Origin: a virus | UHGV virus genome: UHGV-0189394 | Strand: one strand, 5' to 3' | Length of the DNA stretch: 17,848 bases | In this document: in pieces, positions 1-17,848 of the stretch | Layout of the letters: every line of letters begins with the position of its first letter | How positions within the stretch are numbered: the first letter of the stretch is position 1 | Translations under genes and position numbers: made by a program | The notes under the pieces: model-generated | Databases searched by the model: none | The model's input: the letters and a program-made list of their open reading frames with translations, nothing else | What the model was told of the DNA's origin: nothing

Positions 1-1421
1 AACGTCTTCTGCCCTATATTCCGGTTAATGCGGGGATCCTGATTGTGCCGTGCAGTCGTGGCGGCTCTGCGTTTACCGACGAAGCGCGTCAGATCGGTAC
101 CTACTCAAAAGAGAATGGTGCAACGGCAGAGTCTTCGCGCTGGGGTGTGGGCAATCCACTGTACATGGATTTAATCGACCGCACCAAAGCGGCTCTGGAC
201 AAAAACCCGAAAAACGTCCTGCTGGCCGTGTACTGGATGCAGGGCGAAGGCGACTGTATGAGCACGGGGTATGAGCAACACCCGACAAAATTTGTGGAGA
301 TGGTGAAACAGTTCCGTGCCGATCTTGCGGCCTATGCCGGTCAGTGTCTGGGGGAGGATGCGGCACGCGTACCGTGGGTGTGCGGCGATACCACCTTCTG
401 GTGGAAAACCGTTTACCCGACGCAGTACGCAACGGTTTACGGCACTTACCGTAATAACAGTGAGCTGAATATTCATTTTGTGCCGTTGATGAAAGACGAG
501 AACGGGGCAAATGTACCGACCAACAACCCGACGGAAGATCCGGATGTGCCGGAAGCAAATTATTACGGTGCTGCATCACGCACAGCTGAAAACTGGACGA
601 ACCCGACACGCGCCATGCATTTCAGTTCCTGGGCCCGTCGCGGCATCCTGCCGGACCGTATTGCGTCTGCCATCCTTGTGCACACAGGCCGCAATGCGCC
701 GTTCCTGGCTGGCGGTGATATCTCTGTGGACTTCCCCGAGCCTGAAGTGACGGAAGGCGAACTGACCACGCTGTACAGCGGCGCAGTGAGCGAAGGTGAT
801 TATCAGGCGCAGGGCTGGAATAAAGAACAGGGGAATGCTGAAGTTGTTCTCGACCCTGACAGCCAGTCATGGCATGCCCTGAAACTCACACAGGACAGTT
901 CACCAACAAAAGACCTGAAGATGAGTCACGCTGTGGCAAATGCGCCAGATTTGCTGAAGAACGGTGGTCGCATCACATTGCGTTTCAAAATCGGTGGCGA
1001 ATACGCCAACAAGAAAATCGCTGTTGCGATGTATCTGCAACTGAGTGAAAGCGCTCTTCAGGGGCTGACGTTCCAGGGACAGGCTGAGGGGACACATCCG
1101 TTCCTGGCTGCCTTCTTCCTTCAGACCGATGAGCAGAAAAAACTCAATCTTATGCACAGTAGCGGCAGCACGTCGAATAAGGTTGCAGGCTTTGGCGTAA
1201 TGAATAGCGAATGGCATACGCTGGAACTGGTGTATCCGGGACAGGGGAAAAACACGGTTATTCCTTATGTTGATTCTGTGAAAGGGCCGGAAACACAGCT
1301 GACATGGGCTAAATTCACCGGTCAGGAGAACACGCTGATCCTGACGGATGCATCCAGCAATGATACCTATGAAGTGCGTATTGACACGTTGACGGTGGAA
1401 GTTAACAAAGCAGCGGCGTAA
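1..1421 (+). CDS. SASA/SGNH-type carbohydrate esterase-like protein (sialate O-acetylesterase / NanS-like), 5'-partial
   Basis: Frame is open from nt 3 to the window edge (the track ORF at 45 starts on GTG with no upstream in-frame stop); stop TAA 1419-1421. Translation has a VYWMQGEGD block and a later MHFS block resembling conserved SASA esterase motifs, followed by a ~250-aa C-terminal domain. The catalytic Ser block would lie upstream of the window. Confidence 0.5.
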   Translation, partial: RLLPYIPVNAGILIVPCSRGGSAFTDEARQIGTYSKENGATAESSRWGVGNPLYMDLIDRTKAALDKNPKNVLLAVYWMQGEGDCMSTGYEQHPTKFVEMVKQFRADLAAYAGQCLGEDAARVPWVCGDTTFWWKTVYPTQYATVYGTYRNNSELNIHFVPLMKDENGANVPTNNPTEDPDVPEANYYGAASRTAENWTNPTRAMHFSSWARRGILPDRIASAILVHTGRNAPFLAGGDISVDFPEPEVTEGELTTLYSGAVSEGDYQAQGWNKEQGNAEVVLDPDSQSWHALKLTQDSSPTKDLKMSHAVANAPDLLKNGGRITLRFKIGGEYANKKIAVAMYLQLSESALQGLTFQGQAEGTHPFLAAFFLQTDEQKKLNLMHSSGSTSNKVAGFGVMNSEWHTLELVYPGQGKNTVIPYVDSVKGPETQLTWAKFTGQENTLILTDASSNDTYEVRIDTLTVEVNKAAA

Positions 1422-1537: not shown

Positions 1538-1705
1538 ATGAATTTATTTCAACAGGTGATGTTGTATTTCAGTACTGCGGTATGCGTCCTCTGGTTGTTA
1601 TCCGGTGGCTACAAAGCCGTTAAAAACTTCTGGAACAAAAAACCAGACGAGGCCGCCGCCAGAAAGTCAGCATCAGGTTCAGGTGAAAGCAACTCGTTAA
1701 ACTGA
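1538..1705 (+). CDS. small hypothetical membrane protein (55 aa)
   Basis: ATG 1538 with AGGAG at 1526-1530 (7-nt spacing), stop TGA 1703-1705. Product MNLFQQVMLYFSTAVCVLWLLSGGYKAVKNFWNKKPDEAAARKSASGSGESNSLN has one N-terminal hydrophobic helix and a charged tail. Absent from the supplied track, presumably below its length cutoff. Confidence 0.4.
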   Translation: MNLFQQVMLYFSTAVCVLWLLSGGYKAVKNFWNKKPDEAAARKSASGSGESNSLN

Positions 1706-1783: not shown

Positions 1784-2254
1784 ATGCTGAAACTGAATTC
1801 ATTCCGCGATGCGTTAACAGCACATTGCCGGTGGTGTAAAGCCAGTCCGGAAAAATTCACGGTATTCATTGAATCCGGCGGCATTGAAACCACCGGAGAA
1901 TCCCCCTCATTCCTGTACCGCTACAATCTGGTGTTGTTCGTCATGGACTTCACCGAAAGCATCGACAACATCATGCTGCCGGTCATGGCGTGGCTGTACA
2001 GGAATCAGCCGGATCTTCTTCTCAATCCGGAGAAAAACAAAAGCATCAAATTTTCGACGGCCATCAACGATGATGACAGCGCTGACATTCTTCTGGAAAT
2101 CCCGGTATGGGAGCGCGTGATTGTACGCCGCAACGATGACGGCACGGTGAGCGCGGAGCATATCGGTGAGCCACCGGTAAGCCGGGCACTGGAAGCGTGG
2201 CGCGTGGTGTTTGAAGACATGACCTGGAAAACCGCAGAAGAGGCCGGTGCATGA
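1784..2254 (+). CDS. R: tail completion protein, P2 gpR-like
   Basis: 156-aa ORF directly upstream of the S-like and V genes; size and sequence character (e.g. MLPVMAWLYRNQPDLLLNPE) match my recollection of the P2 gpR family. Stop overlaps the next start (ATGA). Confidence 0.7.
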   Translation: MLKLNSFRDALTAHCRWCKASPEKFTVFIESGGIETTGESPSFLYRYNLVLFVMDFTESIDNIMLPVMAWLYRNQPDLLLNPEKNKSIKFSTAINDDDSADILLEIPVWERVIVRRNDDGTVSAEHIGEPPVSRALEAWRVVFEDMTWKTAEEAGA

Positions 2255-2886
2255 GAGACGTTCACGAACTGGATGCCATCTTTCAGGACATTCTTTCAGG
2301 CCTGTCAGCTGCCGGAATTCAGCGCACGGCAATGAGCGTGGGTAAGGCCATCCGGCAGGTACAGACAAAACGCATCAGAAGCCAGGTATCCCCGGACGGT
2401 CAGCCCTGGGAGAAACGAAAACGCCGGATACTGCGCATACAAAAAGGCGTGAAGTTCATCTGGAAAGACGGACAGGTAAGAAACCTGAAAAACTGGAGCA
2501 CATCCCGGGGACGGTTCGGGCGGAAAATTACCGGCTACGATACCGACGCCGGGGGTATCCGGACGTTTTACAAGGCAGATATCGAAGACTATCTGGAAAT
2601 TAACACGCAGCGCGTCGCAGCAAGAGCATCACGTCGCTCACCCATGTTCGAAAAACTGAGAACACCGCGCTTTCTGAAAATCACCCCCGACCCGAGCGGC
2701 GTCAGTGTCGGTTTTCAGGGGCGGGCCGCGCGCATTGCCAGAGTGCACCAGTTCGGTGAGGTGAGCCTTGTCTCGCCCGGAAACGCCACGAAATACCCCG
2801 TGCGCGAACTGCTGGGCCTGAACGCTAAAGACAAACAGCAAATCACGGAAACTGTGATTGCCGGACTGGGGAAAGCTGCGAAATGA
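2251..2886 (+). CDS. S: virion morphogenesis / tail completion protein, P2 gpS-like (extended, 211 aa)
   Basis: Contains QVSPDGQPWEKRK, VHQFGE and VRELLGLNAKD blocks resembling gpS-family motifs; about 60 aa longer than P2 gpS as I recall it. Translationally coupled to R and V. Confidence 0.7.
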   Translation: MRDVHELDAIFQDILSGLSAAGIQRTAMSVGKAIRQVQTKRIRSQVSPDGQPWEKRKRRILRIQKGVKFIWKDGQVRNLKNWSTSRGRFGRKITGYDTDAGGIRTFYKADIEDYLEINTQRVAARASRRSPMFEKLRTPRFLKITPDPSGVSVGFQGRAARIARVHQFGEVSLVSPGNATKYPVRELLGLNAKDKQQITETVIAGLGKAAK

Positions 2887-3464
2887 ACATTGAGCTTATG
2901 CGATTGCTGGAAAACATTGTGCGGATTGGTGTGGTCACGGAAATCAACACCGACACCTGGGAGGTTCGGGTGCAGAGTGGCGGACTGACCACCAACTGGA
3001 TCAGATGGAACAGCGGACGGGCCGGAAAATTCAGAATCTGGATCCCGCCATCACCGGGTGAGCAGGTGCTTCTCCTTTGCCCCGGTGGCAATCCGGAAAC
3101 CGCCGTCAGCGCGGGCAGTCTGTACAGTAATGACAATCCACCACCGGGCGCACTGGAAAACGAAATGGTCATCACCGCACCGGACGGTGCGGAATTTCGC
3201 TATAACGCACAGGAAGGCGACCTGACGGCAAAAGGTATCAAAACCGCAACCATTACGGCCAGAACCAGCATCACGCTGGACACGCCAAGGGTGGAATGCA
3301 CGCAGCACCTGAAGGCAAAAACATTCGAGCTGACCGAAGGCGGGAAGATGACCGGCAACATCACGCACACCGGCGGAAGCCTGACCTCCAACGGTATCAC
3401 GGTGCACAGCCACGTACACGGCGGAGTCAGAAGCGGCGGAGACACAAGCGGAGGTCCACAGTGA
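2883..3464 (+). CDS. V: baseplate assembly protein V (central spike)
   Basis: 193-aa product with GEQVLLLCPGGNPETAV, TLDTPRVECT and THTGGSLTSNGITVHSHVH blocks closely resembling P2 gpV; position directly before W. Confidence 0.9.
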   Translation: MNIELMRLLENIVRIGVVTEINTDTWEVRVQSGGLTTNWIRWNSGRAGKFRIWIPPSPGEQVLLLCPGGNPETAVSAGSLYSNDNPPPGALENEMVITAPDGAEFRYNAQEGDLTAKGIKTATITARTSITLDTPRVECTQHLKAKTFELTEGGKMTGNITHTGGSLTSNGITVHSHVHGGVRSGGDTSGGPQ

Positions 3465-8942: not shown

Positions 8943-9416
8943 TTATCTTACCAGTGTCAGTGCAGAGCTGACGCCGGACTTGATATTATTTGTCAGATCC
9001 CCCAGAGATGAAGACTGAAGGCGCTCACGCAAATCTTCATTCACACGCTCAAAGGTCACCGTAAACTCAATCTTCCGGGCCTTGCCATAGCGATCAAGCT
9101 CTGAGCGCGTGGTATTCAGCGCGGTGATAACGTACATACCGTAAATCTGACCAACACCATCAATCAGCGGCCAGGGACGCCCCGCATACGCCTGAGTTGT
9201 CAGCGCCGTGAGCGAGACTTCACCGCCTGTTATTTCCGGGTAGAGAAGACCGGAAAGCGTGATGGTATCGTCCCCCGCACCGATATACTGCCAGCTTGCC
9301 GAGCGGTTGATCCGCTCGTTCTTCACATGACGCCAGTTACGGGACTGCTGTATCTGCTGGTGTGGCAGCGTGCTTAACTGAAAAACAAACATGCCGTAAA
9401 TCATCATCATAACCAT
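8943..9416 (-). CDS. U: tail protein U
   Basis: Product (..MMMIYGMFVFQLSTLPHQQ...WPLIDGVGQIYGMYVI...KIEFTVTFERV) resembles P2 gpU. The track ORF starts at GTG 9419; I place the start at ATG 9416, but ATGs at 9410-9404 are equally possible (AGGAG lies just upstream). Confidence 0.8.
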   Translation of the reverse strand: MVMMMIYGMFVFQLSTLPHQQIQQSRNWRHVKNERINRSASWQYIGAGDDTITLSGLLYPEITGGEVSLTALTTQAYAGRPWPLIDGVGQIYGMYVITALNTTRSELDRYGKARKIEFTVTFERVNEDLRERLQSSSLGDLTNNIKSGVSSALTLVR

Positions 9417-9421
9417 CACTC

Positions 9422-12307
9422 CTAATCACGATCGCGGAAGCTGTTCATACCGCCGACTTGTCTGCGAATTTCTTCCCGTACCGCCTCCCCCACCATTCTG
9501 GCAAGGTCGCGCGGATTCTGCGTAACCACGTTATGAAGGTGAACGTGAATTTCCCCATCAAACACAGGCGACGGCGCAGGAGCAGATGCACGCGATGCAG
9601 CACCCGATGATGGAGAAACCGGTGCCCACTGCTTAACCTCCACAGGACGGGAAGTATCCGGGGAAACAACCGGAGACACGGGTGAAAGCGCTGGCACAGG
9701 CGGAAGTACGGGGGCAACAGTCGGTTCATTCCACTGCCCACGAACGGCCAGCGCGCGGGGGAGATTTTTAAACACGATATCGCCGGGGCCGATACGCTTA
9801 CGGGCTTCCTGAAGCATACCCGACGTATTGCCTTCGATACCCTTGAGCCTGCGAAGAACGCCACTGGTACCGTCATTTATTCCCGGAGGATTACCACCTT
9901 TGGGATCCACGCCCCCCGTATTACCGCCAGCCACCGGTTTGCCCTTCCCTGCGTTATCACTGGTGGCAGATTCAGCCATACTGGGGGACCATGCCTTCTG
10001 AACCATTTTTTTCTGAACAGGGTCCCACTCCCACATAACCGGAGCCTTTGCAACTGCCTCAGCACGATTTTTCGCCCGCTCAACTTCAGAGGGGAGCACG
10101 CCGAGTTTTTCCAGCACCCATGCCAGGCCGTCCATCAGAGCCTGAAGAGGAGTAAGCGCAAGCGATATCGCCCCGCTGAGCACGCGACCAAAAGTTTCCC
10201 CGGCCGATGTACACCGTTCAAGAGATTCATTACTGGCCTGAACCGGCGTGAGCAACCGGGTAAACCAGTCGAACACCGTGGACACCGCACCCGATACCAG
10301 ATCAAACAGCGGCGCAAACTGAGCAATACTTTCACGAACAGGCGCAAGGCCAGCCCACAGCGCCCGGAATGTGCCGAGCATGAAGGCCTTAACCTGTTCC
10401 CAGTGACGCCATATGAGCAGCGCCCCACCGGCAAGGGCAGCAATCACGAGACCAACAGGACTGAGAAGACCGGCAAGCGCCCCGCCCAGCACCGAAAACG
10501 CACCGGATACCATCCCCCACAGTGCCGGAAGTCCGGACAGGCGAAGGACAAGACCACTGACGCCGGTTGCAACGGAGGAAAGTCCGCCACCAAGAAGCGC
10601 AGAGCCAAGCTGAAGTTTTGCAAAAACCCCCGTCAGCAATCCACCACCGACAGACAGCGCGCCTATGGCCGTTGTGGCCGCAAGCACGCCCCCCACGGTA
10701 AGGGTCAGTGTGCGTACAAGCTGTGGGTTTTCCTGAATCCACGACCTGAAACGTTCGCCCACAGAAGCAACAGCCTGTACAAGCTCGCGGATATCATCAG
10801 TAACCAGCGACACAACATCACTGCGTATACCGGAGAAGACGCCAGACAGACGATCGGCATCACCGCCGAGGTTATCCCGCAGGACATCCCCCATTCGCCG
10901 GGCGGTTCCCTGAACCTGTCCCATACGGTCTGATACCGTTGCCAGCGAGCGGAGAAAATCCGGGATCTGGTCAACGGCAAGATCTTCAATGGGTGTGCCG
11001 AACAGCGCTATCGCCGCATTAGCCCGTTCTGCCGGATCCTGAATCTTCAGCAGCCCGGCAGCCGTTCGCTGCATTGCCTCGCGTGCAGCTGCGCCTCCGC
11101 TGGCAATCGCTGACGACATTCTTTCAGCGTTAAGGCCAATCAGCTCATAGGCCTCAACGCTTGCTTTGGACATATCCGAGCCGCGAATACTGAATTCCTT
11201 GACGGCATCGCCGGTTTTATCCAGGGCGAATTTTCCCTGCTGTGCCATGCTGACAAGCAGCGTCATGGTTTCAGAGCCGGAAAGCCCCATATTGCGGAAG
11301 TGCGTGGAATACTCATGCAGAATTTCAGGAAGTTCAGCGCGCATTTCGGCAGACATTTTCTGCATCCCTGCCGCCATCAGGTCGACCGCCTCCCCGGCAT
11401 TTGCGGCAAGCCCGTTTTTCAGCATGATTCCGGCAGCCTGAACCTGTTCAGCCACACTACCGCCGGTGACCTGAGCAAGATCCAGCGCCTGACGTGTCAC
11501 CCGTTCGAGCTCTTCAGTCCCCACCGTACCCAGTGCGCCAAGCGTGCTTTGCGTCGCAGCTGCCGCCTCTGAAATCATTGCGATATCCGTTGCGACACCT
11601 GACGCCCGGATATTCTGAATCATCCGGCTGTAGCGCTGCCCGTCCTCCGCACTGCCGCCACTCTGTGCCGCAATAAGCGCGCCCTGCCGTTGCTCTTCAA
11701 CAACAGGCGCAACCGCATGTCCGGCGGCGTACAGACCAGCACTGCCCGCCGCCATGGCAACCGCTCCGCGCTGGCTGAGTTTACCGGCGATATCCTGAAC
11801 ACGATCGTAACGTTGCTGTGCCTGCGTGACGCGCGCAAGCTGAGCCTGCTGGCGTTCAAGCTGATCGTTGTATTCCTGCGTTCGCCTGATTGCTTCCTCC
11901 ACAGCGCGGTTACTTCCGTCAGCCCGTATGCCGTGAGCTTCCAGTTCGCGACCGGCCTCCCGTAATCGGGACTGGTGAAGGGAGTACACAGTATTAAGGC
12001 GCTCAACCTTTGCGGTCAGCGCCCTGAGAGTTTCCTGCTGCTTTTCCGTCAGTGCTGTGCCGGTGCGCTGTGCTTCCTGAAGGCGCTGAAGTCGCGCACG
12101 CGCATCATTCAGACTGTTTTCAGTCGAAGCGACCTGCTGACGGGCACGGGAAAACGCATCACTGCTTCGCTGGAGTGACTTAAGCGCGTTCTGTGTGGAC
12201 GAAAGGGATTCAGAAAGCGCGCCGGTCATTTCCCGGGCGCGCCTGACAGGTTGGGTGAGACGGTCGACCGCAGTGAGGGCTACACGTATCTGGAGATTAT
12301 TACTCAT
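9422..12307 (-). CDS. T: tail tape measure protein T
   Basis: Long ORF between E/E' and U with an Ala/Gly-rich hydrophobic central region typical of tape measure proteins. Start placed at ATG 12307-12305 (MSNNLQ...), which overlaps the E' stop; the track's GTG at 12361 would lie inside E'. Confidence 0.85.
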   Translation of the reverse strand: MSNNLQIRVALTAVDRLTQPVRRAREMTGALSESLSSTQNALKSLQRSSDAFSRARQQVASTENSLNDARARLQRLQEAQRTGTALTEKQQETLRALTAKVERLNTVYSLHQSRLREAGRELEAHGIRADGSNRAVEEAIRRTQEYNDQLERQQAQLARVTQAQQRYDRVQDIAGKLSQRGAVAMAAGSAGLYAAGHAVAPVVEEQRQGALIAAQSGGSAEDGQRYSRMIQNIRASGVATDIAMISEAAAATQSTLGALGTVGTEELERVTRQALDLAQVTGGSVAEQVQAAGIMLKNGLAANAGEAVDLMAAGMQKMSAEMRAELPEILHEYSTHFRNMGLSGSETMTLLVSMAQQGKFALDKTGDAVKEFSIRGSDMSKASVEAYELIGLNAERMSSAIASGGAAAREAMQRTAAGLLKIQDPAERANAAIALFGTPIEDLAVDQIPDFLRSLATVSDRMGQVQGTARRMGDVLRDNLGGDADRLSGVFSGIRSDVVSLVTDDIRELVQAVASVGERFRSWIQENPQLVRTLTLTVGGVLAATTAIGALSVGGGLLTGVFAKLQLGSALLGGGLSSVATGVSGLVLRLSGLPALWGMVSGAFSVLGGALAGLLSPVGLVIAALAGGALLIWRHWEQVKAFMLGTFRALWAGLAPVRESIAQFAPLFDLVSGAVSTVFDWFTRLLTPVQASNESLERCTSAGETFGRVLSGAISLALTPLQALMDGLAWVLEKLGVLPSEVERAKNRAEAVAKAPVMWEWDPVQKKMVQKAWSPSMAESATSDNAGKGKPVAGGNTGGVDPKGGNPPGINDGTSGVLRRLKGIEGNTSGMLQEARKRIGPGDIVFKNLPRALAVRGQWNEPTVAPVLPPVPALSPVSPVVSPDTSRPVEVKQWAPVSPSSGAASRASAPAPSPVFDGEIHVHLHNVVTQNPRDLARMVGEAVREEIRRQVGGMNSFRDRD

Positions 12308-12847
12308 CGTTATGATTCCCGGTTCTGGCAGCCGCCCGCTCTCGCCAGGCAACAACCTCACCAGGACTCATACCGAATATCTCTGCGGGCGACCAGTTAA
12401 AGACAACAGCGATATCAGCGACAAGCTCTTCGATATCGTCAAACAGGAGACGAATTACATCACACCTGTATTCGTCTTTTTCTTGCCGGGCAAGGCCTTC
12501 GGCGAGAAAAAATACGTTGCCGCCGTGGAAAGCGCCCCGAAATCCTCCGTGCGCATGGTCGACAGTTCCGCTTCAGTAAGGCGGGGCTCTGTAACACGAG
12601 CGAGATAAACGCACATCGCGTTAAAGTTCAGGCTGTACAGGTGAGCCAGAGACAGACCACGCAGCGAACCACTCTGACGGGCACGCTCGCCAATCTTCAC
12701 ATGTGTAATAATCTGTTCGCCACGGATGACCGGGTTTGTTAATTCAATGAGCTCACCGTTATAGGCAACCTCATTACCATCAGCAGCATCGAAGTCGTCG
12801 ACGTTATCAGCACCGACAACCGGCATTTCGTTTTGTTTTTTTGACAT
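12300..12847 (-). CDS. tail assembly chaperone E+E' (predicted -1 programmed frameshift product)
   Basis: Slippery heptamer T TTT TTC on the - strand (12512-12506) at codons 112-114 of E. Hand translation of the -1 frame from 12506 gives a 68-codon extension (LAEGLARQEKDEYRCDVIRLLFDDIEELVADIAVVFNWSPAEIFGMSPGEVVAWRERAAARTGNHNDE) ending TAA 12302-12300, overlapping the T start. Confidence 0.6.
12455..12847 (-). CDS. E: tail assembly chaperone E
   Basis: 130-aa ORF with AGGAG 9 nt upstream of ATG 12847; sits between FII and T as in P2 and contains a slippery run near its 3' end. Confidence 0.8.
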   Translation of the reverse strand: MSKKQNEMPVVGADNVDDFDAADGNEVAYNGELIELTNPVIRGEQIITHVKIGERARQSGSLRGLSLAHLYSLNFNAMCVYLARVTEPRLTEAELSTMRTEDFGALSTAATYFFSPKALPGKKKTNTGVM

Positions 12848-12892
12848 TGTGAAATTCTCCTGGCGGCCACACGACCGCCGTCAGTCAGTTAA

Positions 12893-13405
12893 TCAGCCAA
12901 GCCCCAGCATGGAGCGGGTGCGGTCAGGCAACACATCCTTGCCATCAACGCGCCAGATGAAGTTCAGCACGTCGATTTCAATAACATCGCTGTTATCAAC
13001 GCTGAGCTTGTACCAGGTGCATTTCATCGCGTAGGTATGTTCGGTATCCTCACCCTGTTTGGCTTCGCCCTTGTCGATTTCGACAATGCGCCCACGGGCT
13101 TCAATATCGACGTACTCAATACCCTCTTCGGAATAGTATTCACCCGAGAAGCGCACACGTACCGCATCAATGCCTGCGGCATATTTGGCAAAGATGTGAC
13201 GGTCCACGCCGCCAACCGCAAAGGAGAGATCCAGCGCACCGTCATCAAGCCCGAGATCCACCGCCGCAGAGCCTGGCATACCCGCACCGCGATACGCTTC
13301 AGTCTTGCGGGTCAGCTTGGGCGGAGTGAAGGAGGTCACCTTACCCAGCTTGTTGTCACCGTCCACAAAGACGGTAAACACACGAAGTTTTTTTGGCACG
13401 GCCAT
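12893..13405 (-). CDS. FII: tail tube protein FII
   Basis: 170-aa ORF (P2 FII ~172 aa); its start overlaps the FI stop (TGATG). Confidence 0.9.
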   Translation of the reverse strand: MAVPKKLRVFTVFVDGDNKLGKVTSFTPPKLTRKTEAYRGAGMPGSAAVDLGLDDGALDLSFAVGGVDRHIFAKYAAGIDAVRVRFSGEYYSEEGIEYVDIEARGRIVEIDKGEAKQGEDTEHTYAMKCTWYKLSVDNSDVIEIDVLNFIWRVDGKDVLPDRTRSMLGLG

Positions 13406-14610
13406 CAGTTACCCCCTCCCAGAGATGCAAAAGCAGAACTGAAGAACTCGTCAGTAAACGTCTGATAGAGTTCCATGCACTCCATAGGCGGAACAGGGGT
13501 GTATTTGTAGCGAATACGCACAATACCCTGACGAAGGCTGGTTGTGTCGTTGTCGATGATATCGAACCAGCATTCCGCCCCGATAAGTTTTCCGGCCGTG
13601 ACCAGCGCATCCAGTTTTGCCTTGATAGCGCTTACCGCATCCTTCGCGTTGGCTGGCGTCAACGGTGAATCCACCACCTGAAGCTGTGCCTCTGCGATAC
13701 CGTCAGCCAGTTGTTGCGCCGTACGGGTGTACACCTCAAAGATATACTCCGCCGTTTCCGGCGTACGGTTCCCCCAGAAACGGAAGGAGCCGTCACCCTG
13801 GTGAATAATCGTCGTCACCTCACTGCTGTTCAGCGTGTTGGCATCGCTGTTTTCATCCTGAAGCGACCAGGAAACCGACGCAGAGATCCCGAGAACATTC
13901 TTCACAGGGATGTTTGAAAGAGAGCGATGCCAGCCCTGTTCGTGGTCGATTCGGGCACGAAGACCGCACGCATACGCCGCAGCCGGGAAAGTTTCGCTTT
14001 TACCGGATGCAGGGTTGAACGCCGTGAAATCAGGCCACAGAAGCATGATTTCACGCCCGGAAATCTTTTTGCGGAATGCAATGGCATCGGACGGTTTTGT
14101 ACATGCCGGGCAGCCGGAATACGCAAAAGCGCGCATTTTGCCCGCAATCGTCACCAGTGCCGCCGTAACGGCCTCGGACTCAAGACCGGGTGCCGCCAGG
14201 ATACGCGGACGACAGCCAATCCCTTCCATCTGTTCAGCAACCAGAAGAGCCTGCATCCCCGTGTAACTGCCATCAGCCTCCACGGTACCAATAACAAGCT
14301 GGTCCTGATTCTTCCCTCCCTCGGTGTCTTCCTCCTCTTTGGCTTCAGCGACACGCACGACGATAACGCGCGTGCTGACCTGATCGGAGATAGCCTTAAG
14401 AGATTTGTAGAGCGTCCCCTTTGTGCCAGCCTTACCCAGAACATTATTGACTCGTGTTAACAGCACCGGCGTGTCAAGCGGGAACTGCTCTTCATCAGCA
14501 TCATCTGCAACAGCAATAATCCCAATGACACTGGAATCAACGTCATTAATTGCCGTCACCAGATCGGTGTTTTCCCTGACGCGCACACCGTGAAATCGCG
14601 TTTCAGCCAT
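13405..14610 (-). CDS. FI: contractile tail sheath protein FI
   Basis: ~400-aa ORF resembling P2 gpFI. Start placed at ATG 14610 (MAETRFHGVRV..., GGTGA 5 nt upstream) rather than the track's ATG 14622, which has no RBS. Confidence 0.9.
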   Translation of the reverse strand: MAETRFHGVRVRENTDLVTAINDVDSSVIGIIAVADDADEEQFPLDTPVLLTRVNNVLGKAGTKGTLYKSLKAISDQVSTRVIVVRVAEAKEEEDTEGGKNQDQLVIGTVEADGSYTGMQALLVAEQMEGIGCRPRILAAPGLESEAVTAALVTIAGKMRAFAYSGCPACTKPSDAIAFRKKISGREIMLLWPDFTAFNPASGKSETFPAAAYACGLRARIDHEQGWHRSLSNIPVKNVLGISASVSWSLQDENSDANTLNSSEVTTIIHQGDGSFRFWGNRTPETAEYIFEVYTRTAQQLADGIAEAQLQVVDSPLTPANAKDAVSAIKAKLDALVTAGKLIGAECWFDIIDNDTTSLRQGIVRIRYKYTPVPPMECMELYQTFTDEFFSSAFASLGGGN

Positions 14611-14685
14611 ACGATTCACCATCAGTTATGTTTAAGCTCGCCTGAATAATCCACTACTGGCGCGCAGCCTTCACGTGATGCGGGT

Positions 14686-14763: not shown

Positions 14764-15909
14764 ATGAGTATCACTGAATCAGTAACACATCACATCAACA
14801 GCGCACTGGATGCAGCGGAAGACACAGTGAGGGTACCGGACTTCACTATCACACTGGAAGGAAAAGATGCCAGCCTGAAGAACATCACGCAGCGCATCAT
14901 GAGCCTCACCATGACAGACAACAGGGGTTTTGAGGCTGACAGGGTGACGCTGGAAATCGACGACGCCGACGGCGAGGTGGTACTTCCGGAACGTGGAACA
15001 AGATTATCTCTGTCTCTGGGATGGAAAGGTGAAAGCCTCACACACAAAGGGACGTTCGTTGTGGATGAAGTCGCGCACGACGGGCCACCGGATAAGCTGA
15101 CCATCTCCGCGAACAGCGCGGATTTTCGCGAAGAGTTTAACGTAAAACGCGAAGTCTCATGGCATGACGTGACCGTTGAGCGTGTGGTGTCTGCCATCGC
15201 CCACCGTTACGGACTGAAAGCCCAAATCAGCGAAATGTTGATGAACATCGAAATCGACCATGCCGACCAGACAGAGGAAAGTGATATGTCATTCCTAACG
15301 CGCATGGCTGACATGCTGGGTGCAATAGCCACCGTAAAAAACGGGTGCCTGCTGTTCATTCTGCCGGGTGGTGGTGTGACGGCCAGCGGTCACGCCCTCC
15401 CCTCTTTCTCCCTGACCCGTTCGGATGGCGACAGCCACCGGTTCCGCATTGCTGACAGACAGGCCTACACCGGGGTGAAGGCTTACTGGCTGGATTTAAA
15501 GTTCGGTCAGAAGAAGGCCGTGAACGTGAAAAAGCGAAACGCGCAAACCACGCAGAAGCCGGAGAAAAGCAGTTCACGGGAGGGCGGATACATGGAAGGC
15601 GCAGAAGGCAACGTGTATGTGCTGAGAAGAACCTACCCGAACGAAGAGGCCGCGCGTCGCGCAGCTGCCGCACGCTGGCAGCAACTTCAGCGGGGCGCAG
15701 CGGAATTCAGCATCACGCTGGCGCGCGGACGCGCCGACCTGTATCCGGAGATGCACGGCACGGTATCCGGGTTCAAGAGCGACATTGACAATCAGGACTG
15801 GATTATTTCGCGCATTGAACACGTCATCGACGACAGCGGCTTCACCACCAGACTGGAGCTGGAAGCAAAAATCGCAGACTGGATAGCAGAGAGTAACACG
15901 ACTGGCTAG
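14764..15909 (+). CDS. D: tail protein D (late control gene D family; gp27/VgrG-like baseplate hub)
   Basis: 381-aa ORF (P2 gpD ~387 aa) with a strong RBS, immediately upstream of ogr as in P2. Confidence 0.85.
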   Translation: MSITESVTHHINSALDAAEDTVRVPDFTITLEGKDASLKNITQRIMSLTMTDNRGFEADRVTLEIDDADGEVVLPERGTRLSLSLGWKGESLTHKGTFVVDEVAHDGPPDKLTISANSADFREEFNVKREVSWHDVTVERVVSAIAHRYGLKAQISEMLMNIEIDHADQTEESDMSFLTRMADMLGAIATVKNGCLLFILPGGGVTASGHALPSFSLTRSDGDSHRFRIADRQAYTGVKAYWLDLKFGQKKAVNVKKRNAQTTQKPEKSSSREGGYMEGAEGNVYVLRRTYPNEEAARRAAAARWQQLQRGAAEFSITLARGRADLYPEMHGTVSGFKSDIDNQDWIISRIEHVIDDSGFTTRLELEAKIADWIAESNTTG

Positions 15910-15950: not shown

Positions 15951-16253
15951 ATGCATCCTTGCCCATACTGCGGAGCAAGCACCCGCACCAGAACAAGCCG
16001 CAACGCCAACGACACAGGAACAATCAGGGAGAAATACTATCAGTGCAACAACATTGAATGCAGCGCAACCTTTGTGACTCACGAGTTTGTCGTGAGAACC
16101 GTATGCCGTCCGCAACCCACCGAAGAACGGGGAATTATTCCCGCAGACGCCTTCAAAGCATGTCACCGGGGGAGGGATCAACTCAGCCTTCCCCTGGGCG
16201 ATTGCGCCTCCCAGTCAAAAACTGTACATTACGCGCGGGTGCCTTTCGGCTGA
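15951..16253 (+). CDS. ogr: Ogr/Delta-family zinc-finger late transcription activator
   Basis: N-terminus MHPCPYCGASTRTRTSRNANDTGTIREKYYQCNNIECSATF has the C-x2-C...C-x4-C arrangement and surrounding residues of P2 Ogr; GGGGGA RBS upstream. The 100-aa ORF is longer than P2 Ogr (72 aa). Confidence 0.8.
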   Translation: MHPCPYCGASTRTRTSRNANDTGTIREKYYQCNNIECSATFVTHEFVVRTVCRPQPTEERGIIPADAFKACHRGRDQLSLPLGDCASQSKTVHYARVPFG

Positions 16254-16382: not shown

Positions 16383-16523
16383 ATGTCGCAAAAATCGCTT
16401 ATGGCCATCACGTTCTGCGTGACGGCAATCCTCATCATCTGGATGTTACATGGTTCGCTGTGTGAAATACGGATGAACATATGGGGAGCGGAGTTTGCGG
16501 CGTTCCTACAGTGTAAACAGTAA
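16383..16523 (+). CDS. Hok/Gef-family type I toxin-like small membrane protein (46 aa)
   Basis: ATG 16383 with AGGAG 9 nt upstream, stop TAA 16521-16523. Product MSQKSLMAITFCVTAILIIWMLHGSLCEIRMNIWGAEFAAFLQCKQ has one TM helix followed by SLCEIR and a later AAF block, matching the Hok family signature as I recall it (R1 Hok ...SLCEIR...VAAFMAYE). Confidence 0.55.
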   Translation: MSQKSLMAITFCVTAILIIWMLHGSLCEIRMNIWGAEFAAFLQCKQ

Positions 16524-16647: not shown

Positions 16648-16852
16648 GTATTCACATTTCGAAGATGTGGTCACTGCGTGGACACAGAGCGATGAAAATC
16701 CTTTCAAATCACAATGTTAACTAATTTTTTTCATTCATCAACAAGGATTTTCACGTTTGTGTTACCTGTATGAGACGAGAGTTAACCGGACAAGTGTGCC
16801 ATAATCTCGCGGCCAGGCATACTTGCGAAGATTTCAGGTATAAGGATACGTA

Positions 16853-17848
16853 ATGATACAACCTATTTCCGGCCCTCCTCCTGGGCAACCACCAGGTCAG
16901 GGAGATAACCTGCCGTCTGGCGCGGGCAATCAGCCTTTATCCAGTCAGCAACGTACTTCGCTGGAAAGCTTAATGACGAAAGTGACCTCACTGACGCAAC
17001 AACAAAGAGCAGAACTGTGGGCGGGTATCAGGCACGATATTGGTCTGTCGGGAGATTCACCGCTGCTTTCGCGTCACTTCCCTGCCGCTGAGCATAATCT
17101 GGCGCAACGTCTGCTGGCCGCGCAAAAAAGCCATTCTGCCCGCCAGCTTTTAGCGCAATTAGGGGAGTATTTACGTCTGGGGAATAATCGTCAGGCGGTC
17201 ACGGATTATATCCGTCATAACTTTGGTCAGACGCCGCTGAATCAGCTCTCACCGGAGCAATTAAAAACCATTCTCACCCTGTTGCAGGAAGGGAAGATGG
17301 TTATTCCGCAACCACAGCAGCGCGAGGCGACCGACCGTCCTTTATTACCGGCGGAGCACAATGCGCTAAAACAGCTGGTGACCAAACTTGCGGCGGCAAC
17401 GGGGGAACCCAGCAAACAGATCTGGCAATCGATGCTGGAACTTTCCGGGGTGAAAGATGGCGAGTTAATTCCAGCGAAACTGTTTAACCATCTGGTGACC
17501 TGGTTGCAGGCGCGCCAGACGTTAAGCCAGCAAAATACGCCGACGCTGGAATCACTACAGATGGCGCTAAAACAACCTTTAGATGCCAGTGAACTGGCGG
17601 CGTTATCGGCATATATCCAGCAAAAATATGGCCTTTCTGCGCAATCATCGCTTTCTTCTGCCCAGGCCGAGGATATTCTTAATCAGCTTTATCAACGGCG
17701 GGTTAAAGGGATTGATCCGCGTGATATGCAACCGCTGCTTAATCCTTTTCCACCGATGATGGACACGTTGCAAAATATGGCAACGCGTCCCGCGCTGTGG
17801 ATACTGTTAGTCGCGATTATCCTGATGCTGGTCTGGCTGGTTCGTTAG
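16853..17848 (+). CDS. flk: flagellar regulator Flk-like protein (host chromosomal gene)
   Basis: 331-aa ORF with TAAGGA RBS; Pro/Gln-rich N-terminus (MIQPISGPPPGQPPGQ...) and a single C-terminal transmembrane anchor (ALWILLVAIILMLVWLVR), matching enterobacterial Flk as I recall it. Complete gene, stop TAG 17846-17848. Confidence 0.7.
   Translation: MIQPISGPPPGQPPGQGDNLPSGAGNQPLSSQQRTSLESLMTKVTSLTQQQRAELWAGIRHDIGLSGDSPLLSRHFPAAEHNLAQRLLAAQKSHSARQLLAQLGEYLRLGNNRQAVTDYIRHNFGQTPLNQLSPEQLKTILTLLQEGKMVIPQPQQREATDRPLLPAEHNALKQLVTKLAAATGEPSKQIWQSMLELSGVKDGELIPAKLFNHLVTWLQARQTLSQQNTPTLESLQMALKQPLDASELAALSAYIQQKYGLSAQSSLSSAQAEDILNQLYQRRVKGIDPRDMQPLLNPFPPMMDTLQNMATRPALWILLVAIILMLVWLVR

Follow-up and report, generated by a model that had tools for sequence, protein, structure and literature searches.

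A ~60-residue insertion in a long-form P2 gpS-type tail completion protein is a predicted divergent WYL-type beta-barrel

The 17,848-nucleotide stretch of the UHGV virus genome UHGV-0189394 analyzed here (hereafter the window) carries, at positions 2251-2886, a gene for a 211-residue protein that resembles gpS, the tail completion protein of phage P2, which itself has 150 residues (PMC11099176 Table 1). The question raised by this locus is what the additional residues are, whether they belong to this gene alone, and what they might do in a virion. Combining profile searches, structure prediction, and comparison across long-form homologs, we found a conserved block typical of a whole gpS subfamily which, judged from its sequence, is a divergent WYL-type (Sm-fold) domain, and for which we tentatively propose a role at the leading end of the phage DNA. 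The gene and its parts are the following.

2251..2886, plus strand: long-form gpS-type tail completion protein, a complete open reading frame (ORF) of 211 amino acids (aa), matching PF05069, TIGR01635 and PHROG 26
2251..2424, plus strand: gpS N-terminal core, aa 1-58, a helical hairpin (H2-17, H20-43) followed by the conserved Q..PDG....RK loop
2425..2610, plus strand: predicted inserted WYL-like (Sm-fold) beta-barrel of gpS, aa ~59-120, with five predicted strands
2611..2883, plus strand: gpS C-terminal core, aa 121-211 (Pfam stretch at aa 122-205; secondary structure from AlphaFold2)

The ORF 2251-2886 (plus strand), which starts with ATG and ends with TGA, is on its profile matches a P2 gpS-type tail completion protein. 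Pfam PF05069 (Phage_tail_S) matched the 211-aa protein with 90.1 bits against a gathering cutoff of 24.3 (E 1.7e-25), the TIGR01635 equivalog (tail_comp_S) with 81.2 bits (cutoff 37.65), and PHROG 26, labeled "tail completion or Neck1", at E 1.9e-32. The Pfam match is broken into two stretches, the second of which aligns aa 122-205 with profile positions 61-146. In the gene order of the P2-type tail module S comes right after gpR, as it also does in a complete P2-like prophage relative. The assignment to the gpS family made in the first-pass annotation is therefore borne out by two models above their cutoffs and by the position between gpR and gpV. The family motifs SQVSPDGQPWEKRK, VHQFG, and RELLGL lie at aa 44-57, 165-169, and 185-190, and their columns P48, D49, R56, H166, Q167, G169, R185, L187, L188, and G189 are conserved in the family, with G50 near-invariant; the motifs that had been quoted in support of the assignment (QVSPDGQPWEKRK, HQFG, RELLGL) are present and fall on invariant or near-invariant columns. 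More broadly, conserved columns of the N-terminal core comprise R35, Q38, R41, Q45, P48, D49, and R56, and invariant columns of the C-terminal core comprise M132, F133, A163, H166, G169, Y182, R185, L187, L188, and G189. The window protein has every invariant column of a 19-sequence alignment and has the family motifs PDG...R, MF, ARxxH.xG, and Y..R.LLG. Its C-terminal core runs from a basic linker and the MF motif through a beta hairpin, a helix bearing ARIARVHQFG, a second hairpin, and YPxRELLGL to the C-terminal helix.

When the protein was aligned with P2 gpS and 14 members of 148-158 aa, a block of ~60 residues (aa ~59-118, RILRIQKG...EDYLEIN) faced a gap in these short members, in agreement with the internal insertion of that size, relative to P2 gpS, that the first-pass annotation had proposed. 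The same annotation had held that a length normal for a known gpS subfamily would speak against an insertion. Here the insertion stands and the length is also normal, since ~209-218 aa is standard in P88/Xuanwuvirus and its relatives. Because P88/Xuanwuvirus and related phages and prophages of Klebsiella, Salmonella, Enterobacter, and Citrobacter carry the ~211-aa form as a rule, the insertion is a subfamily trait, and not an oddity of this locus. When 5.8 billion proteins were searched, dozens of clusters of 209-218 aa aligned over the full length, and a separate set had 148-158 aa. The long clusters came from Escherichia, Salmonella, Edwardsiella, Erwinia, Dickeya, Serratia, Kosakonia, and Providencia and, more distantly, from Nitrincola and Marinobacterium. 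The gpS lengths are accordingly bimodal, at about 150 and about 212 aa, and fragment extraction at the insertion site yielded 61-67 residues in long forms against 2-9 in short forms. Isolated phages with the long form include P88 (Xuanwuvirus, gp34, 211 aa), phiT5282H, Klebsiella 3LV2017, ST16-OXA48phi5.4, Salmonella SEN4/SEN5, and Citrobacter Shae_phiSM. Close relatives of the window gene itself (88-91% nucleotide identity) occur in only 16 out of 5426 complete E. coli genomes. In a neighbor-joining tree of the core columns, long and short forms were interleaved outside Enterobacterales, in a topology with long branches and with sampling biased by the sequence retrieval.

A tblastn search with the insert alone hit 49 phage records and, where these were annotated, fell within the gpS-equivalent gene, with the exception of an unannotated stretch of the 254-kb Aeromonas phage AP1. 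This stretch (MT713136.1, 242165-242269) matches the second half of the insert with 57% identity over 35 aa (E 2e-5) and is possibly a small WYL-like ORF. Two further proteins depart from the two common lengths. The tail completion protein K4NZQ8 of Burkholderia phage phiX216, the only strong viral fold match (BFVD, E 3e-9, 27% identity), has 244 aa, and therefore even longer gpS variants exist in Burkholderia P2-like phages. A search match of 268 aa (P0145) joins the N-terminus of a GPO capsid scaffold to the C-terminal core of gpS; this chimera is probably a deletion derivative or a misassembly.

The insert is conserved as a unit. Among 42 long-form homologs, mean pairwise identity was 55% in the insert, 43% in the N-terminal core, and 51% in the C-terminal core, and comparison of the insert with its E. 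coli MSB1_4I ortholog revealed three amino-acid changes and nine synonymous codon changes. Both comparisons indicate that the insert is under purifying selection, and it is not a chance or low-complexity feature. Its net charge is +6, with +10 in the first half, and averages +5.3 over 83 long forms; the whole 211-aa protein carries +22. The GC content of the insert (50.6% vs 57.7% in the rest of the gene) was considered as a sign of recent foreign origin and rejected as such, given that the insert is conserved subfamily-wide and that the composition follows its K/I/F/Y-rich sequence.

An AlphaFold2 model of the window protein, built from a 56-sequence alignment, had a mean predicted local distance difference test (pLDDT) score of 86. 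The insert contributes five strands (aa 62-71, 75-87, 90-97, 102-107, and 111-121) with a block pLDDT of 85-94, arranged as the five-stranded beta-barrel of the Sm-like SH3 fold. The suggestion of the first-pass annotation that the extra basic segment might be a discrete inserted module is thus sustained by a confidently predicted fold of its own. The N-terminal core (pLDDT 79-94) shows the same elements in the short-form model: the 150-aa short form P0058 was predicted with the same core and with the five strands absent, and its segment of lowest confidence (pLDDT 54, residues 61-70) is the insertion site. In these models, the long loop that links the N-terminal helical hairpin to the C-terminal alpha/beta core accommodates the insert. 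The core displays the long N-terminal helix, the extended loop with a beta hairpin, and the C-terminal helix that characterize the tail completion protein fold, and its best structural match is gp51 of Staphylococcus phage 80alpha, a monomeric tail completion protein of the lumen.

Which fold family the barrel belongs to was addressed with profiles. No relative emerged when PDB sequences were searched with the whole protein or the full-family profile. With an insert-only profile (alignment A4), the best PDB match was the WYL domain of mycobacterial PafB, of PafBC (E 0.036), in which GRwYLVGHDRDREDTRTFRLSRIS aligned with GrtitGfDeerggiRtFyrsdIe. The Pfam WYL model in turn matched 2 of 23 insert fragments (best E 2.8e-4), and on the long gpS P0056 it covered aa 63-115 with 17.5 bits (E 0.004), below the gathering cutoff of 21.8 bits. 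Against 1.84 billion representative proteins, the insert-only profile gave 88 matches at E<=1e-3, and 63 of the 87 scanned carry PF05069. Others among the matches are Pfam-verified WYL proteins aligned exactly on their WYL regions: P0151 (WYL at 9e-18, with WCX), P0148 and P0137 (both WYL with BRCT), P0147, and P0157. Among the closest non-phage relatives of the insert, P0137, P0148, and P0152 combine an N-terminal hydrophobic segment with WYL, and Pfam detects BRCT in P0137 and P0148. Finally, hhalign of the gpS family alignment (A3) against eight non-gpS WYL regions (A8) returned, over window aa 61-120, Prob 97.8% and E 7.5e-13. The eight regions were picked from the insert-profile matches, which introduces a selection bias, but each of them is a Pfam WYL match, and their WYL identity does not depend on that choice.

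It might be argued that the insert is a generic small beta-barrel whose WYL/Sm likeness arose by convergence, or that the 211-aa ORF is an annotation or assembly artifact. Small barrels are ubiquitous, the individual Foldseek matches of the insert were weak (best E 6.5e-3), and a Pfam scan of the window insert alone, WYL (PF13280) included, gave no match even at E<=10, which counts against a WYL assignment. On the other hand, the hhalign E value between the gpS family and the WYL regions, the Pfam WYL matches on gpS inserts, and the retrieval of WYL proteins by the insert profile at a library-wide E<=1e-3 all oppose convergence, and we rejected an artifact because the ORF is uninterrupted and its full length is conserved in dozens of taxa as well as in isolated phages. 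The insert-profile search and the hhalign comparison largely refute this explanation, which we regard as extremely improbable. The failure of the window insert itself to reach a Pfam match is also the reason why databases list only PF05069, the sole Pfam annotation given for all 73 homologs.

In the literature searched, we found no description of a WYL domain inside a virion tail completion protein, although it may be noted outside that literature; searches that paired WYL with tail completion or with virion morphogenesis retrieved no paper joining both. The founding WYL paper describes fusions to helix-turn-helix (HTH) and enzymatic domains, and the words "tail" and "virion" are absent from it (PMC4012209).

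The WYL domains of PafBC bind single-stranded DNA (ssDNA), for which the PafB residues R181, Y196, R204, R208, R211, and R214 are required (PMC11804915). We mapped these residues onto the gpS inserts through alignment A5 and counted their frequencies over the 83 long forms. The window protein keeps R77 (PafB R181), R104 (R208), and F106 (F210), and has K92 in place of Y196, A100 in place of R204, Y107 in place of R211, and D110 in place of R214, so that the site of the W-Y-L motif reads K92-I93-T94. The signature W-Y-L motif and the groove arginine pair (PafB Y196, R211, R214) are hence absent from this protein. Some non-enterobacterial long gpS (P0056, P0100) retain the canonical FRRDR[IV]. 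Conservation at the main positions, over the long forms, was as follows.

F69: F in 82/83
R77 (PafB R181): R in 66/83
G95 (PafB G199): G in 82/83
D97 (PafB D201): D in 81/83
R104 (PafB R208): R in 82/83
F106 (PafB F210): F in 83/83
Y107 (PafB R211): Y in 55 and R in 9 of 83
K108 (PafB L212): a basic residue in 79/83
D110 (PafB R214): D in 61 and R in 13 of 83

In P2-like cos phages, a 19-nt single-stranded overhang is present at the DNA end. High-resolution localization in a virion exists for a single tail completion protein, 80alpha gp51, of which one copy lies inside the neck channel, where its extended loop caps the DNA end (N55, Y78, F81, R87), three tape measure chains pair through their N-termini with its beta hairpin, and its positive face is turned toward the DNA (PMC11661146). 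The same authors note that lambda gpZ has an extra apical beta domain, proposed to bind one DNA end, and speculate that cos phages may position DNA in the tail by other strategies (PMC11661146). In SPP1, both the head-binding interface and the routing of DNA into the cytoplasm require gp16.1 (PMC11099176).

By analogy with gp51, the gpS core may occupy the lumen of the neck or tail, with the tape measure protein on one side and the DNA end on the other. Its insertion loop would correspond, by secondary-structure order only, to the DNA-proximal loop of gp51 (the segment with N55), and because of this correspondence we propose that the insert adds a contact module there: the barrel, strongly basic and WYL-derived, might touch the leading DNA end and help to position, retain, or escort it during head-tail joining and ejection. 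We hold this reading tentatively, as quite possibly right, with nucleic-acid binding as a putative property. It is favored by the basic insert and by the retained equivalents of PafB R181 and R208 (R77 in 66/83 and R104 in 82/83). An hhalign comparison between the gpS family and 80alpha gp51 detected no similarity, and the two were compared by secondary-structure order and, by eye, through the EFG/HQFG-type motif.

Several observations weigh against such a contact module. Of the six PafB ssDNA-binding residues, three are replaced here and in most enterobacterial relatives (Y196 by K/T, R211 by Y, R214 by D), and the canonical WYL groove is not preserved because of these replacements; the change of R214 to D is a charge reversal, found in 61 out of 83 long forms. 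The position of R204 is Ala in the window protein, though it is Arg or Lys in 61/83. Additionally, many P2-like phages have a short gpS although all package cos DNA, and since short-gpS phages do so too, the cos overhang alone cannot explain the distribution of the insert. Older P2 genetics, finally, treats gpS as a sheath terminator (PMC11784142). A more specific form of the proposal is unlikely in our judgment: here, the WYL-derived barrel would be a dedicated clamp for the single-stranded cohesive end, placed in the neck lumen atop the tape measure protein and then traveling into the cell, positioning or protecting the overhang.

The altered groove could also be expected of a barrel that has lost nucleic-acid binding and serves as a protein-protein docking or space-filling module, facing for example the head completion protein/portal channel, gpR, or the tape measure protein. 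The loss of the WYL signature Tyr and of the Arg pair and the conserved Asp at the R214 position agree with such a module; the 80alpha protein is held only by minimal contacts with the head-tail connector, so that an added docking domain is plausible (PMC11661146), and T4 uses a hijacked Sm-fold Hfq purely as a neck plug (PMC12929587). We nevertheless consider this somewhat unlikely, as the insert is still strongly basic, the equivalents of PafB R181 and R208 are kept, and a basic residue stands beside the R211 position in 79/83. The sheath phenotype suggests yet another arrangement, in which gpS forms a symmetric ring outside the neck and terminates the sheath, with the insert as a peripheral collar or decoration domain that might oligomerize like Sm-fold proteins. 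P2 gpS mutants have longer sheaths, according to genetics summarized in PMC11784142, and Sm-fold proteins commonly form rings (PMC4012209). The best structural match of the core, however, is a monomeric tail completion protein of the lumen, and PHROG 26 bears the label "tail completion or Neck1"; a ring of this kind appears quite improbable.

The contact module presupposes a phage with packaged DNA, and the genomic setting bears on this. The genes flanking gpS are the following.

1784..2254, plus strand: gpR-type tail terminator gene (PF06891 P2_Phage_GpR, E 3.8e-40; PHROG 65 tail terminator)
2883..3464, plus strand: gpV baseplate spike gene (PF18715, PF04717, PF18946)

The gpR stop and the gpS start overlap by 4 nt (ATGA, 2251-2254), as do the gpS stop and the gpV start (ATGA, 2883-2886), so that S and V are contiguous; in the P2 genome, by contrast, orf30, a terminator, and a separate pV promoter lie between S and V. 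Synteny in the window follows R-S-V-W-J-I-H, with an H-type fiber of 973 aa and then a DUF4376 protein. Past the fiber genes comes an inverted block on the minus strand, with gpU, a 979-aa tape measure protein, the tube, and the sheath, and then gpD and ogr/Delta. E. coli MSB1_4I harbors the nearest relative spanning most of the window (~90% nucleotide identity), a complete P2-like prophage that is inserted beside serS and has genes for the portal, terminase, GPO scaffold, P2-family capsid, gpM, gpL, and X. The portal, terminase, scaffold, and capsid genes of this complete prophage led us to rule out a headless tailocin, for which a role at the DNA end would be moot. All complete E. coli genomes have a match to the right end of the window, and the host is therefore E. 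coli or a very close relative.

The inverted tail block, with sheath, tube, E, tape measure, and gpU at 8946-14622 (minus strand), is inverted relative to P2, converges on the fiber genes, and diverges from gpD (14764-15909, plus strand); the MSB1_4I prophage has its tail block inverted likewise. Between the lysis region and gpR, an ORF at 45-1421 (plus strand), probably cut by the window start, combines a sialate-O-acetylesterase-like (SASA) segment with DUF6645, and at the equivalent position the MSB1_4I relative encodes a DUF6645 protein of 645 aa. Its product may be a virion-associated or moron carbohydrate esterase. A 55-aa DUF1378 ORF at 1538-1705 (plus strand) lies immediately upstream of gpR. 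At the other side, an ogr/Delta zinc-finger gene (15951-16253) and a 46-aa ORF (16383-16523), the latter in the place of the relative's Hok/Gef gene, mark the end of the prophage, beyond which host serS on the minus strand (~16764-17848) runs off the window.

Tail completion proteins are near universal in long-tailed phages, their mode of action is poorly known, and the first structure of one in place, 80alpha gp51, dates only from 2024. A WYL domain of the ssDNA-sensing class at an apparently DNA-facing loop, in the large and easily cultured P2-like group, would offer a testable handle on how genome ends are held and released, for which natural controls exist in short-form phages such as P2 and in long forms with or without the canonical arginines. 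An unexplained length difference is thereby turned into a specific hypothesis on how the genome end is held. Were the clamp reading true, a domain that bacteria use to sense ssDNA in damage and anti-phage regulation would have been co-opted as a virion component; were the insert a mere spacer, the gain would be a modest improvement of annotation. The predicted domain, which current annotation misses, would extend the known WYL contexts from regulators to a virion structural protein.

Compared with known systems, the neck Hfq of T4 (gp13/gp14/Hfq) provides an analogy only, as it is a separate host protein that is present as a hexamer in assembly intermediates and is not built into a tail completion protein. 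Lambda gpZ (192 aa) is, like gpS, the tail completion protein of a cos phage; hhalign of the gpS insert profile against it gave Prob 0.1% and no similarity, gpZ was not among the top BFVD fold matches of gpS, and the resemblance between the insert and the gpZ beta domain would be at most an analogous solution. The 80alpha gp51 (PDB 9mu2 chain P), with 115 aa, belongs to the HK97 gp10 family, lacks an inserted barrel and detectable sequence similarity to the gpS family, and comes from a siphovirus that packages by the headful mechanism and has blunt DNA ends. With the WYL domains (PF13280) of PafBC, DriD, CapW, and BrxR, the insert shares the Sm-like five-stranded barrel and the pattern F.Y/W...R.L..W...G..I.G.D....R.F...I., whereas the WYL proteins known so far, soluble regulators or accessories of enzymes, have HTH and WCX as partner domains and the gpS insert lies within a virion structural protein, has no HTH or WCX, and scores below the Pfam gathering cutoff.

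Within the gpS family, P2 gpS (NP_046769, 150 aa), the type member of PF05069/TIGR01635, is 34% identical over the core and shares the conserved motifs, the place after gpR, and the predicted order of core elements (helical hairpin, loop, hairpin, helix, hairpin, helix), but is without the ~60-aa barrel of the window protein. The closest counterparts in architecture are P88 gp34 (YP_009113077, 211 aa) and its equivalents in SEN4/SEN5, 3LV2017, ST16-OXA48phi5.4, and phiT5282H, which share its long architecture and the position of the insert, belong to other lineages (47-53% full-length identity to the window protein), and carry annotations that go no further than virion morphogenesis, tail completion, or Ne1 protein. 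As a gene, the window gpS thus joins the P88-type long gpS subfamily, and what is new is the domain architecture within this known family.

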